Of a DNA stretch of 64,000 nucleotides, positions 40,659 to 62,113 are shown piece by piece (position 1 is the stretch's first letter; each line of letters starts with the position of its first letter). Location: the IMG/VR virus record IMGVR_UViG_3300044653_000098, positions 77,725-141,724 of that record; one strand, given 5' to 3'. The stretch comes from a virus. The notes below the pieces were generated by a model that was not told where the DNA came from, did no database searches, and saw only the letters and a program-made list of their open reading frames with translations. The translations under genes were made by a program, and so were the position numbers.

Positions 40659-41324
40659 TTGCTGATCGCGATGCCGGTAGACAGCCACTCCCCCGGTGAT
40701 CTCGCTCACTCCCTAGATAGCTGGAGCCGGGTGCGGCCGCCGGGCGGCGAGCCTCTGGAGTTCATCTTCGCGGTCGAGCCTGACCCCGACATCGTCCCGG
40801 AGGTCATCAACCGCTACGCCGGGACGTTCAGCTGGAAGGTGGACATCTTCCAGAACGAGAACCGGCTGGGCCCGGACCTCAACCCCGCCCACGTGCTGGA
40901 GCTGGCGTTCCGGCGCTCGCCTCAGGTGGTGTTCGCTGACGCCAGCGCGATCGTGTCCACCGACGTTGCCGAGTACCTGAGCTGGGCCCTGGAGTGGTTC
41001 GAGCACGATGCTCAGTGCCTGGCGGTCTGCACCTTCGAGGAGCACGGCACCTCGCTCAACCCGTCTCTCGCGCGCACCGACTTCGCGTTCACCCCGGCCT
41101 GCTTCGGGATGTGGGGAAACCGGTGGGACCGGATGCGGCACTGGGATTTCAAGGCCACGGATGACTTCCGGTGGACCGACTACGTCCAGCAGCGCCACCT
41201 CATGCCCACCGGCCGGTATGTGATCAAGCCCTGGCAGTCCCGCTCGCAGCCGATCCGCGGACCGCGGTCCGCCAGCTTCGAGCAGGAGGTCGAGCCTCAG
41301 CCGACCTACAGCCTGACGGCCTGA
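40659..41324 (+). CDS. glycosyltransferase-like protein, divergent paralog of 38412..39236 (start uncertain)
   Basis: FIFAVEP, CLAVC, FGMWGNRWD, SRSQ. Confidence 0.55.
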   Translation: MLIAMPVDSHSPGDLAHSLDSWSRVRPPGGEPLEFIFAVEPDPDIVPEVINRYAGTFSWKVDIFQNENRLGPDLNPAHVLELAFRRSPQVVFADASAIVSTDVAEYLSWALEWFEHDAQCLAVCTFEEHGTSLNPSLARTDFAFTPACFGMWGNRWDRMRHWDFKATDDFRWTDYVQQRHLMPTGRYVIKPWQSRSQPIRGPRSASFEQEVEPQPTYSLTA

Positions 41325-41349
41325 TGAAGCCCTGCACCGTAACAGGTGC

Positions 41350-41586
41350 ATGCCAAGAGGATGGGATCCCGCGTACGACCCGTTCGGCGGGTACCGGGCA
41401 ACCCGGTCGTTCCTGGGTGTCCGGATCAGCGACAAGACTTTCTCAGACGACTCGATCGACAAGATCCTGAAGGACGGCAAGGACCCGAAGAAGGTGCTCG
41501 GCAAAAAGATGAAAGAGCTGAGCATCAAGGACAAGCAGAAGCTGATCAGGCGTATCGAGGCCCGTGAGAAAAAGAGAAACCAGTGA
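41350..41586 (+). CDS. small Lys-rich protein
   Basis: GTAACAG-N4-ATG; 78 aa. Confidence 0.6.
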   Translation: MPRGWDPAYDPFGGYRATRSFLGVRISDKTFSDDSIDKILKDGKDPKKVLGKKMKELSIKDKQKLIRRIEAREKKRNQ

Positions 41587-41593
41587 GGAAGAG

Positions 41594-41662
41594 ATGATCT
41601 TACGCAGGGGGAGACCCAGCCCCCGTAGCCCAAAACACCAAGAGGCAGAGGCGCCGCTTTAA
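41594..41662 (+). CDS. putative regulatory mini-ORF (ATG ATC TTA...) overlapping tRNA-Leu(UAA)
   Basis: GAGGAAG SD-like sequence, 22 codons; TTA at codon 3; its TAA stop is the tRNA anticodon. Confidence 0.35.
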   Translation: MILRRGRPSPRSPKHQEAEAPL

Positions 41663-41702
41663 AACCGGTCGAGTGTGGGTTCGAGCCCCACCGGGGGCAC
41701 CA
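41619..41702 (+). tRNA. tRNA-Leu(UAA), bldA-type anticodon, atypical
   Basis: Acceptor GCCCCCG/CGGGGGC, loop TT-TAA-AA, GTGGG-TTCGAGC-CCCAC, encoded CCA; enlarged D-loop and C.C mismatch closing the anticodon stem. Confidence 0.75.
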
Positions 41703-41735
41703 GATGGAAGTTCTGCAAGATGGTCCGGAAAAAGA

Positions 41736-41765
41736 GTTGACACGGGTCTACCGGCATCGTAAGGT
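41736..41765 (+). promoter_or_regulatory. host sigma70-type promoter with operator (copy 2), drives leader and tRNA array
   Basis: TTGACA-17bp-TAAGGT; GTTGACACGGGTCTAC. Confidence 0.75.
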
Positions 41766-41771
41766 GGGTAC

Positions 41772-41870
41772 ATGATGCAACGCAGGTACTCAGAGCAGCG
41801 GAATCAGGATGGGCATTTTGCCATCCCGTGCCCCGCCATGCTGGGGACCAGCGAGGTGGCTTCTGGGTAG
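41772..41870 (+). CDS. putative leader peptide (32 aa) of the tRNA array
   Basis: ATG 6 nt after -10; MMQRRYSEQRNQDGHFAIPCPAMLGTSEVASG*. Confidence 0.5.
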   Translation: MMQRRYSEQRNQDGHFAIPCPAMLGTSEVASG

Positions 41871-41887
41871 AGGAAGATCAAGCTCGG

Positions 41888-41930
41888 AAGCCGCCCGCAG
41901 GGACAGAAGCCCTCGCGGGCGGTTTGCGTT
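41888..41930 (+). terminator. intrinsic terminator/attenuator hairpin
   Basis: AAGCCGCCCGC-AGGG...CCCT-C-GCGGGCGGTTT followed by GCGTT. Confidence 0.65.
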
Positions 41931-41942
41931 ACAGCTGAACAT

Positions 41943-42013
41943 GGGGAGCAGGCGACGGCTGCCGGCGGGATTCCAAACCCCGCGACGAGTGGGTTCGACT
42001 CCTACGCACCCTG
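41943..42013 (+). tRNA. tRNA-Trp(CCA)
   Basis: Loop TTCCAAA; T-arm GGTTCGACTCC. Confidence 0.6.
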
Positions 42014-42172
42014 CGGAGCACCACCCTGAAGGCTGGGGTGAACGTGCCAGCAGATTGATAACTCAACAGCGTGAGCATCGCCCAGGGCGCCATCCCTGGG
42101 CACAAGCTCCCCCGTCCGCGCCTGCGCTCAGGTCTTCCTGGGTCACCATCGGGCACGGCCGGGGGAGATCAT

Positions 42173-42244
42173 GGGGATGAGAAGCTGAGGTAGCGACCGC
42201 GCCCTGCAAGCGTTGGTGACTCGGTTCGATTCCGAGCATCTCCA
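42173..42244 (+). tRNA. tRNA-Ala(UGC), C33
   Basis: G3.U70 acceptor pair; loop CCTGCAA. Confidence 0.65.
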
Positions 42245-42323
42245 CGAGACCGCCGCTTGGGGAACAGCTGGGATGGCCTGGTACCGGGCGTTACCCCCAG
42301 ACCTGAAACGGAGCGGCGGCAGA

Positions 42324-42400: not shown

Positions 42401-42530
42401 GGGGGGAGATGCGGGTTCGAGTCCCGCCCTGTCCGTGAAAACTCTCCGCGGTGGCCGATCTGCAGGCGGCTGGCCGGCCAGGGCCCTGGTCAGGAGAGGG
42501 ACAGGTAGTCCAATTGGCAGGACGCCCCCT
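42401..42530 (+). ncRNA. circularly permuted tRNA-like RNA (YrlA-like)
   Basis: 3' half (GGGGG, T-arm, CCTGTCC) precedes 5' half (GGACAGG, D-arm GTCC/GGAC, CCCCC). Confidence 0.65.
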
Positions 42531-42658
42531 ACATTTTCTGGTGCGGCTTACCACGATCCGGCTGGGGTTCGGGAGAAGAACGTCCGGGAGGTCGAGCGCA
42601 ATACGCGGGCGCAGTTCCGCGCAAACGGCGGCCGGATGCTGTGGGAGCACCAGAACAA

Positions 42659-53737: not shown

Positions 53738-55379
53738 ATGCCGTCTGAGGAACCGATTTTTGCTGATTATGTCGAGCTGGCCGGGCCGTCTGTGCCCGGA
53801 GCTGGCCTTGGTGTAATGCCTCCGGGCGGCATGTTACCTGGGGGTCACCACCCAGGGATTCGGACAAGAGGGATATGTCCTCTCAGACGATGACGTAGGC
53901 CCGCAGCCTCCCCCGCAGGAAGCCGACCTCTCGTTCGCCACGGGTGTCCCGTACTTCCTGCCGTTCGCCACGCCTTACCGCGACAGCTGGGAGGTGTTCC
54001 GGGAGGACCCGGTCACCATCAGCCAGCTGGTGTCCATGCGCCGCCAGGACGGCCAGGCACGTGCGCTGTACCGGCTGCTGACCATGCCGCTGCTCGCCGC
54101 GCTGAAGAACTGCGACGTGGTGCCGGTCGACGGCCAGCTCGGCGGGTCGGAGGAAGCAGCTTTCTGCAAGGATCTGCTCACGCTGCCCGCCTCCAGCGGG
54201 GGCATGACCCACAGCTTCGGCCGGTTCATCCGCCAGATGCTGCTCGCGCTGTTCAACGGCTTCAGCGCCTGGGAGATGGTCTACTGGGTGCCCACCACCG
54301 GGCCGCAGAAGGGCAAGATCACCCTTCGCAAGATCGACTGGCGCCCGGCCGAGACGCTGACCTTCCTGCTCGACGGCCAGGGCGAGTTCAACGGCTTCCG
54401 GCAGCGCACGTTCTTTCAGGGCCGCACGATCGACGTCAAGATCCCCAAGAACACCGCGGTCTACTATGCGCACGAGGAGGCAGAGCGCCCGTTTTATGGT
54501 GTTTCGATGTTCGAGAGCGCCTTCTACCACTACGACAAGAAGGTAAAGCTTTACTACATCGCCCACCTCGCGGCGCAGCGCTCCGCCGTCGGCATGCGCG
54601 TCGGCACGATGCCCCCGAACCCGGCCGCCCAGGACAAGAACAACTTCGTCCGCGGGCTGGCCGACCTGGGGCTGGCGCAGTACATGGTGGTGCCGAGCGC
54701 TGACTGGATCGTGCAGAGCCTCAAGGAAGATTCGAGCTTCGACTTCCTCGGCCTGATCAACCACCACAACAGCGAGATGAGCAAGTCCATCCTCGCCCAG
54801 TGGTTCGACCAGCAGCAGGGCGGCGGCCAGGGCGACAGCTCGCTGGTCGACTTCGGCAAGCAGTCCGACGTCACCTTCATGATGATGCTGGACGGCATCC
54901 TGGAGGAGATGGCCGAGGTCATCACCCAGCACATCTTCCCGCGGTTCGTGGACTGGAACTTCGGCTCGGGCAAGTACCCGCAGTTCAAGTGGGGGCCGCT
55001 GACCGGTGAGCAGAAGGCCGCGATCCAGGACACGTTCGACAAGCTCGCGCTGGCCGGCCAGAACGCCAACTGCACTCCCCAGTTCATGATGGAGCTGGAG
55101 AAGAAGATGGCCGGGGAGTTCGGGTTCGACATCGACTACGACACGATCGAGAAAGAGCAGGAAGCCCAGCACCAGCTCCAGCTCAAGATGGATCAGGCTC
55201 AGGCCAAGGCCCAGATCCAGGCCCTGCAGAACCCGGAGCAGCAGGCCGCGGGAGGCAGCGCCGGAACTACGGCTGGCGGCAGTGCAGGAGGCTCCTCGAA
55301 TGGCGGCAGCCAGGGCGGGGCGATGAGTACGCCAGGCAACCTGCTGCCCTCGGGCTTCCAGGCGAAGTCTGCTGCTTAG
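53738..55379 (+). CDS. portal protein (Mu gp29/DUF935-like), discontinuous reading frame at TTA 53834
   Basis: ALFNGFSAWEMVY, PFYGVSMF, HHNSEMSKSILAQ, FVDWNFG; GGAGGTG SD precedes ATG 53738 in a different frame from the body. Confidence 0.8.
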
Positions 55380-60843: not shown

Positions 60844-62113
60844 ATGCCCAATATCAGCCTTCTTGAACCGATGGTCCTGAGAGGGGTAGTTTTACCGGGT
60901 TGAGAAATTTACAGTCCCGGAATCTCTCGTAATGCTCAACCGGCTCGACCAGACCCCGTGGCCGTGGCCGTACGCGACGTGGGACGTGATCAAGGGCTCG
61001 CGCATGATGGCAGCGCCCAACGTCCCGAACGCCGAGGCGCACATCGTCTCCCGTCTCGGCCGCAGCCAGGAGACCGCGAGCTTCGTCTACCTGCGCGAGA
61101 AGAAGATCTTCGAGCCGACCACGCTGCACTGGCTGCGCGTGCCTGGCGAGCTGGCCCGGGTCAACGCCGAGCAGAGCGTGCTGCGCGAGGTCAACGACCT
61201 CAACCAGCGCTTTGATAACTTTGCCGAATGGCTGATCTGGCAGGCTATGGGCGGCTCGATCGTCTTCCAGAGCGGCCAGGGCTTCGCTGGCACCTCCGGC
61301 CCGACGGGCCCGAGCGGGATCAGTTCTGGAGCCGGTGACGTTCAGGCGACGGTCGACTTCAAGTTCCCGTCCAGCCACTTCGTCCAGCCCGCGGTCCCGT
61401 GGCTGGCCAACAGCGCGCTGACGTGGGGCACGACCGGCATCGGCGCCAACACGACGCTGAACCAGGCCAACACCAACCTGCAGGCCGGCGGCGGCTCGAT
61501 CTCCTACGCGACTCCCATGGAGATCGTGGAGGACATCCGGTCCTGGAAGCGGATCGTCCAGATCCACGGCCGCGTCCCGGCCACGGAGGTCTTCGCCACC
61601 TCGGTCACCCTCGCTGCGATGTTCGAGGCGTGGGTCCAGGCTGGTCAGGGTTCTACCGTCAACATCCCGGCCACGATGCTCAGCGACCGGATGAAGGATG
61701 AGTATTACTCGTCCGGCACGCTCTCGGGCTTCATGGGCCTGACCTGGAACACCGTCGAGGAAGTCTTCGAGAACACCTCGGGCGTCCTGACGTTCTTCGT
61801 CCCCGACGGCATGCTCTACATGGGCAACTACAGCGACCAGCGGCCGCTGGAGCTGCTGATCGGCCCGACCGCGGACGACGAGGCGCCAGATGGATTCACC
61901 GGCAAGTACGCCAAGACGTGGAAGGAAAAGGACCCGTCGGCGCGGCAGTACCTGCTGGAGTGGAACCTCCTGCCGATCGTGACCCGGCCCGAGCAGATGC
62001 TCGTGGTCGACGGCATCATCGCCAACAACACGACCACGGCTACCTACGCCGGCGGCTCGGGTGGCAGCCTCCAGACCTACCCGTACTACTTCAACCAGAA
62101 CCCGACCGATTGA
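60844..62113 (+). CDS. major capsid protein (lambda gpE-like), requires a 10-nt hop at 60892-60901
   Basis: GAGGAGG SD, ATG 60844 MPNISLLEPMVLRGVV|EKFTVPESLVMLNR...; downstream EWLIWQAM, VDFKFP, WKEKDPS..LP. Confidence 0.85.

Follow-up and report, generated by a model that had tools for sequence, protein, structure and literature searches.

An uncultured soil phage carries, directly upstream of its tRNA array, an unusual tRNA gene whose anticodon UAA would read the rare leucine codon UUA, and in the same genome the portal and major capsid genes are each interrupted by a short insert that starts with an in-frame TTA. We give about even odds (a probability of roughly 0.5) to the reading that this gene encodes a functional, lineage-specific, non-canonical tRNA derived from type I tRNA-Leu, which would act as a weak or time-limited brake on ribosome hopping over these inserts. 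The stretch of DNA analyzed, referred to here as the window, is the final 64 kb of a 141.7-kb IMG/VR record (labelled G000; 67% G+C), and the UAA tRNA, its leader, the 78-aa ORF before it, the array promoter and the two coding gaps discussed below lie on its plus strand.

An aberrant UAA tRNA beside the tRNA array

The gene spans 84 nt (41619..41702) and was delimited from the sequence, a homology-guided parse and sister versions in related phages. The acceptor stem pairs at seven of seven positions (GCCCCCG at 41619-25 with CGGGGGC at 41692-98), the T arm at 41675-91 reads GTGGG-TTCGAGC-CCCAC, and the 3' end consists of A73 (41699) and an encoded CCA (41700-02); with Watson-Crick pairs throughout both stems, the UUCGA motif and the discriminator, this part of the molecule is that of a canonical tRNA. 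U8 and A9 stand between the acceptor and D stems, and the leucyl-tRNA synthetase (LeuRS) identity elements U8-A14 and C74 are present (T 41626, A 41632, C 41700). The other two arms depart from the canon. The D arm (41628..41652, 25 nt, placed by alignment) has a GCC/GGC stem and a loop of 19 nt, where about 7-11 nt with G18-G19 would be canonical; the loop keeps the motif GGCAGA, holding the equivalent of G18-G19, with the GG displaced. In the anticodon arm (41653..41669, GCCGC-TTTAAAA-CCGGT) a G.U pair and three Watson-Crick pairs (C-G, C-G and G-C) lead to a C31.C39 mismatch, where a canonical arm has 5 bp, closed at 31-39, and a 7-nt loop; the loop UUUAAAA contains the anticodon TAA at 41660..41662, which would read UUA. 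The variable loop has 5 nt. The anticodon, the encoded CCA, the enlarged D loop and the C.C mismatch, all pointed out by an earlier sequence-only reading of this DNA, are thereby confirmed.

Standard finders, whose scores that reading had proposed as a check, reject the window copy. ARAGORN does not call it at default settings, and against Rfam RF00005 it scores 17.9 bits (E = 1.5), below the gathering score of 29. At lowered thresholds ARAGORN reports either '???(gagg)' or a Leu(taa) with a pseudo-intron in the D loop, the folds being ambiguous. That the locus is a genuine tRNA-derived UAA gene, as had been claimed, is borne out by the sister versions, which score 34-37 bits and show compensatory stem changes. 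A check for an attP site or host tRNA fragment returned the pattern of the 3' half in seven unrelated viral contigs, as various tRNAs or partial tRNAs. A Logan assembly made independently from the source sample contains the same sequence, a second soil study has a contig that carries the region with two differences in 558 nt, and in a 139-kb contig from a third sample the region is identical to that of the window.

The tRNA array, as called by default ARAGORN, covers 42.3-46.1 kb of the window. As had been expected, the UAA gene is not under the array promoter: the promoter-like TTGACA-N17-TAAGGT site that heads the array lies downstream of this gene (41737..41765) and is kept in all relatives. 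In a strict promoter and terminator scan of 41200-42050 nothing passed the criteria, this site included. The UAA tRNA is most probably transcribed with the operon upstream of it and not with the array.

Judged by its sequence, the gene is a structurally aberrant phage tRNA of the type I Leu lineage. Its best match in blastn is gene 221 of Streptomyces phage Wofford (E = 6e-4), and its 3' two-thirds match short-armed phage tRNA-Leu(CAA) genes, namely this gene and gene 142 of Gordonia phage GodonK. Like type I tRNA-Leu(CAA), it has a short fixed variable loop of 5 nt, a 3-bp D stem, the GGCAGA motif, U8-A14, A73 and the T arm GTGGG-TTCGAG-CCCAC. In contrast to type I tRNA-Leu(CAA), the anticodon is UAA, the D loop is 7 nt longer and CCA is encoded, and compared to the Wofford gene the anticodon arm is 2 nt shorter and closed by C.C. 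Orthology with the first tRNA of Microbacterium phage Magritte, a Leu(CAA), was considered and rejected, as the two are not alignable as orthologues. In S. coelicolor, a type I tRNA-Leu(CAA) and the type II bldA tRNA-Leu(UAA) are charged by one LeuRS, for which U8-A14, C74 and the length of the variable loop are identity elements, and the type I CAA tRNA can replace bldA when given a UAA anticodon (PMC6614811). The phage tRNA shares its anticodon with Streptomyces bldA, the sole reader of the rare UUA codon; unlike bldA, the window version has no long variable arm, is phage-encoded and has no known developmental regulation.

Related loci were retrieved using a neighbouring gene of 234 aa as handle. 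They show one locus with four structural versions, all directly 5' of the same array promoter, TTGACA-N17-TA(A/T)GGT. Version W (window and L029) has 84 nt, the 19-nt D loop and a 7-nt anticodon loop. Version Q (L032/L033) has the same length and the same 19-nt D loop, with the anticodon loop CUUAAAG (7 nt), and its variable loop is CAAGC where that of W is CGAGT. Version P (L030/L031) has 78 nt, an 11-nt D loop and a 4-bp anticodon stem with the 8-nt loop CUCUAAAA. Version G, found in G001, the closest complete relative, and in L034 and L026, has 93 nt, a 10-nt D loop and the 8-nt loop AGUUAAAC; it carries a long variable hairpin as in type II bldA, so that a long paired variable arm is present in G, L026 included, and absent from W, Q and P. 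Beyond these loci, a W+Q covariance model run over 1.4 Mb of relatives found nothing other than ordinary tRNAs, among the best of which were the Leu(CAA) genes of L030 (51.6 bits) and G009 (47.0 bits), and a pattern search of 36 related IMG/VR records for the UAA tRNA returned only tRNA-Thr genes or coding matches.

The array has odd members of its own. The genes for tRNA-Trp(CCA) at 41943-42014 and tRNA-Ala(UGC) at 42173-42245 are found only at lowered ARAGORN thresholds and score 23.5 and 18.9 bits with Rfam; G001 has an ordinary Trp gene at the site of the former, and the P-type contig shares the odd Trp of the window. At 42401-42540 (and at 7735-7870 of L003) a tRNA 3' half (GGGGG-AGAT-GCGGG-TTCGAGT-CCCGC-CCTGTCC-G) stands about 65 nt upstream of the matching 5' half (GGACAGG-TA-GTCC...GGAC-G-CCCCC), as in a circularly permuted tRNA gene; this arrangement is kept in G001. 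In the relative G011 a similar 3' half follows a TTGACA site, and the array is headed by an odd 67-nt tRNA-like sequence (G011:C1:89320-89386) with a 4-bp stem and a 5-nt loop, UUAGC; this loop may contain UAG as the anticodon for a further rare Leu codon, and it recalls the constricted UUAAA loop, closed by 32-38, of W and Q. Between the array promoter and the first array tRNA of the window, a 32-codon ORF is followed by a G+C-rich hairpin with a T-rich tail (41772-41930), and this whole block is kept in G001, L026, L030 and L032.

The TTA-containing leader

Upstream of the tRNA, and running into its 5' half, lies a mini-ORF of 22 codons (41594..41662; M I L R ...) with TTA as codon 3 (41600-02), an SD-like GAGGA 5 nt upstream of the ATG at 41594 and a stop codon, TAA at 41660-62, that coincides with the anticodon. 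For the window sequence, this agrees with what had been described; the same frame is also open from GTG 41564. The conservation of the mini-ORF, on which the proposed regulation would depend, is divided. Its start stood: the first 12 nt, ATGATCTTACGC (ATG ATC TTA CGC), are identical in W, Q and P, as is the longer motif ATGATCTTACGC(A/G)GGG, and the 12-mer is unique within the window. Its end did not, as the stop falls on the anticodon in W only, Q having it at tRNA positions 8-10 and P downstream of the tRNA, and in version G the leader is absent altogether.

The mini-ORF adjoins, on its upstream side, a 78-aa ORF (41350..41586) that is present in W, Q and P and absent from G. Pfam and PHROGs searches with this ORF and the 234-aa neighbour found no family for either. 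The 78-aa ORF and its homologues form a lysine-rich family of 78-82 aa (41350-41586 in the window, 3190-3435 in L030, 872-1120 in L032), which accompanies the leader-bearing tRNA versions and is missing wherever the leader is missing. The adjacent ORF (78-81 aa) shares about 84% identity between W and Q, and its W and P forms can hardly be aligned, unlike the start of the leader, which is the same in all three; something in the leader is constrained. The upstream ORF of Q and P ends in a stop codon that overlaps the start of the mini-ORF (ATGA), suggesting translational coupling. A G-run in the leader (41610..41614) is complementary to the 5' strand of the acceptor (41620-24) and could form an anti-acceptor hairpin; the minimum free energy folds of W, Q and P all pair this G-run with the acceptor C-run, with z-scores that are not significant for these three sequences.

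These observations bear on the proposal that the mini-ORF senses UUA decoding: a ribosome stalled at UUA would cover the G-run and free the acceptor, allowing the tRNA to fold and be processed, and the resulting negative feedback on the tRNA would set the efficiency of hopping. The invariant start with its UUA codon, the SD-like sequence in W and stop-start overlap in Q and P, and the recurrent pairing speak for such a sensor, and a UUA-bearing uORF is known for adpA (PMC10732093). As in the trp and his attenuators and in the adpA uORF, there is a short ORF with the regulatory codon, here UUA at codon 3, and it stands just upstream of the RNA that it might sense; in contrast to these systems, the target of the regulation would be the very tRNA that is sensed, the alternative structure is a predicted one and the end of the ORF is not conserved. 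Frame, length and stop of the mini-ORF vary, the G version does without a leader, the folds are not significant and the leader is represented by three distinct sequences only. We regard a UUA-sensing feedback loop through the leader as unlikely. Slightly less probable again is a combined scheme, in which a weakened UUA tRNA whose maturation is gated by the UUA leader ORF would jointly with it set the timing or the frequency of portal and capsid hopping.

Selection on the cloverleaf

The four versions allow the tRNA to be compared arm by arm. In all four the acceptor, D and T stems are fully paired, and U8, A14, the GG of the D loop, UUCGA, A73 and CCA are present; the Rfam scores of Q (34.1 bits), P (36.6) and G (35.4) exceed the cut-off of 29. 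Compensatory double changes occur at 6-67 in the acceptor, at 50-64 in the T stem and at 29-41 and 30-40 in the anticodon stem, and a fifth distinguishes the variable-arm hairpins of G and L026 (C-G to U-A). Pairs were counted by script, as the 150-row covariance-model alignment was too mixed for the purpose. Between W and Q, 14 of the 84 positions differ, about the same proportion as in the flanks (84-92% identity), and none of these differences hits the 38 stem nucleotides (hypergeometric P = 7.6e-5). In the loop, positions 32-38 covary (U-A in W, C-G in Q), and U33/Y33, U34-A35-A36 and A37 are retained amid changing surroundings; U-A-A-A, the anticodon with A37, is the only loop motif common to the four versions. 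Compensatory evolution has thus kept the acceptor, D and T stems and the core of the anticodon stem, and the UAA anticodon has not changed, which argues that the RNA is under purifying selection as a cloverleaf with this anticodon and is not a relic. The anticodon arm is abnormal in every version: it has three or four Watson-Crick pairs, and its loop is either 8 nt long or closed by C.C.

The latter finding leaves room for a tRNA-like RNA that acts outside decoding, either as the decoy or substrate of a host enzyme directed at the anticodon, such as an anticodon nuclease or the enzymes that modify the UUA tRNA, or as a processing or stability element that terminates the upstream transcript at its 3' side. 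The parts that are conserved, the acceptor-T minihelix, CCA and the UAA-A37 loop, would suit such a role, and the D loop, the variable region and the strength of the anticodon stem have been free to vary. The complete cloverleaf, including the D stem, U8-A14 and the GG, has been kept nevertheless and would be superfluous for a minihelix, and no defence gene or target was identified. We judge this alternative improbable, about on a par with the leader sensor.

A decaying relic of an ordinary phage tRNA-Leu(UAA) is less probable still. According to this explanation the phage would have given up UUA as a sense codon and have no more use for the tRNA, and the rapid turnover of loop indels, the sub-threshold Rfam score of the window copy, the near absence of UUA and the loss of the gene from relatives could all be read in this way. 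Decay does not, however, account for the pattern of change described above: none of the four versions has a change that disrupts its acceptor, D or T stem, five double changes are compensatory, the anticodon is invariant and the W-Q differences lie, 14 of 14, outside the stems.

TTA-led gaps in portal and capsid and their relation to the tRNA

The claim that the capsid and portal genes are broken at TTA codons holds. The portal gene has a 7-nt coding gap at 53834..53840, GGC ATG[TTACCTG]GGG, absent from G001; its landing codon CTG matches the take-off codon ATG at two of three positions. The major capsid gene has a 10-nt gap at 60892..60901, GTA GTT[TTACCGGGTT]GAG, in which both take-off and landing codon are GTT, and which is absent from G001, Magritte and about 60 relatives. 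Removal of both inserts yields the G001 protein exactly, and the Magritte capsid protein aligns across the gap site without three extra residues. The Logan assembly of the source sample, which is independent, also has both inserts; a Logan contig and a diverged strain sampled by another study share the capsid insert, and a 139-kb contig from another sample has the capsid gap together with an identical W-type tRNA. In either gap TTA is followed by 1 or 4 nt and then by a landing codon equal or similar to the take-off codon.

The same geometry can be read from the two 10-nt gaps in the terminase gene of phiHau3. UUA-led coding gaps have been described for the terminase of this Streptomyces phage and for two prophages (PMC10732093), and those of phiHau3 have been ascribed to bypassing that UUA triggers in the absence of a functional bldA tRNA (Smith et al., 2013; Antonov et al., 2023; PMC10732093). 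Similar to phiHau3, the window inserts are frame-breaking, 7 or 10 nt long, start with an in-frame TTA, end in a codon like the take-off codon and are absent from homologues. By analogy, ribosomes would skip the TTA-led gaps in capsid and portal. In contrast to phiHau3, the gaps are in capsid and portal genes, and the phage is one of about 140 kb with more than 30 tRNAs and a UAA tRNA of its own, where the model for phiHau3 has no regulator other than the bldA tRNA of the host.

In a crude gene set of G000, with overlaps resolved, TTA occurs 4 times among 39,922 codons; a second census without overlap resolution was discarded, as it was inflated by false ORFs. Further TTA-gap candidates from a frame scan of G000 and G001 were rejected as ordinary gene junctions or antisense frames, and an indel comparison of the two genomes showed no gaps beyond those in capsid and portal. 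One gene of G000, 19.9 kb before the window (G000:C1:57815), starts with ATG CAG TTA and keeps its TTA at codon 3 in G001; G001 likewise retains the remaining three TTA codons of the crude set, and TTA close to gene starts recalls the mini-ORF.

It had been suggested that the tRNA should co-occur with TTA-broken genes in related phages, and here the outcome is negative. We compared nine larger relatives (G005, G008-G012, G020, G021 and G030; capsid identity 64-72%). Seven of them (about 125-152 kb) have 34-38 tRNAs each, with Leu CAA and CAG and, except in G011, Leu GAG; G005 and G030 have similar capsids and almost no tRNAs. A Leu UAA tRNA was found in none of the nine, using ARAGORN at two thresholds, a regular-expression search and the covariance model. 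Leu UAG is likewise absent from the arrays of the seven tRNA-rich relatives. Three of these genomes nevertheless have TTA gaps: the G020 capsid gene is broken at exactly the codon boundary where the window has its capsid gap and reads GTT[TTAAGTT]GAG (L077 about 596; G020:C1:71694), G021 has ACC[TTAAGCC]ACG in a gene for a protein that matches the N-terminus of the portal (G021:C1:149804, minus strand), and G011 has GGT[TTACCCAGGT]GAC in a gene of unassigned product (G011:C1:120049). Among the 53 scorable of 63 IMG/VR loci, the capsid site is broken only in G020, beside the window's own. Conversely, G001 has the UAA tRNA and no gap was detected in it. With gaps occurring without the tRNA and the tRNA without gaps, the tRNA is not needed for hopping; this distribution of sequences excludes it as a requirement for bypassing and leaves it, at most, the part of a modulator. 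The link between tRNA and hopping is drawn from two genome types, one with gaps and one without.

An 8-nt anticodon loop is a hallmark of suf-type frameshift suppressors. That the tRNA promotes recoding needed by the broken genes, either by +1 frameshifting at a quadruplet UUAN or by stimulating the hop, is nonetheless the least probable reading: both gaps shift the frame by +1, TTAC read as one step opens both genes, and P and G have 8 unpaired nt around UAA, recalling the 8-nt loops of sufD, sufJ and SufB2, but none of the four loops is complementary to UUAC (checked by hand), the W loop itself has 7 nt, the 8-nt version in G001 occurs without gaps, homologues do not have the 2-3 residues that a +1 shift would add, removal of the gaps gives exactly the protein of the relatives, and the gaps of G020, G021 and G011 in genomes without the tRNA speak strongly against a frameshift- or hop-promoting role. 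Membership of the +1 frameshift-suppressor class was rejected on the W loop and on these gaps.

The lack of UAA readers in the arrays of the relatives fits the hungry-codon model. As these arrays omit the UAA tRNA and three of the genomes have TTA gaps, a UUA reader in the gap-bearing W genome is paradoxical. The paradox would be eased if the tRNA were weak, time-limited or not a decoder, and its weak anticodon arm points in that direction.

The reading we prefer, a functional type I-derived tRNA(UAA) that brakes hopping weakly or for a limited time, accommodates these points. The tRNA would descend from the short-armed type I tRNA-Leu family found in actinobacteria and actinophages, and since type I tRNA-Leu is a substrate of actinobacterial LeuRS, it would be charged with leucine. 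It would read UUA, though poorly, because of its weak anticodon arm and oversized D loop; to our knowledge, a 19-nt D loop together with an anticodon stem of three Watson-Crick pairs and a C.C mismatch is far from any tRNA that is known to decode. In-frame UUA appears to be almost confined in this phage to the heads of the portal and capsid gaps, so that reading of UUA by the tRNA would come at the expense of ribosome hopping and yield truncated portal and capsid proteins. The tRNA would be a brake on hopping and not its engine. That it controls hopping is an inference.

Scarcity of the host UUA tRNA has been the sole explanation offered to date for UUA-triggered hopping, and the published evidence for such hopping concerns one phage terminase gene, tested mostly in E. 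coli. The present phage combines two such gaps in essential virion genes with an unusual UUA tRNA of its own. Its four fast-evolving versions form a natural series of the distortion in the D loop and anticodon arm that is tolerated under selection. If the combined scheme of weakened tRNA and leader ORF were true, the virus would own a dial on translational bypassing that is independent of a bldA-like tRNA of the host. As the tRNA resides in one genome with phiHau3-type gaps, and close relatives offer the tRNA without gaps and gaps without the tRNA, the hungry-codon model becomes directly testable.
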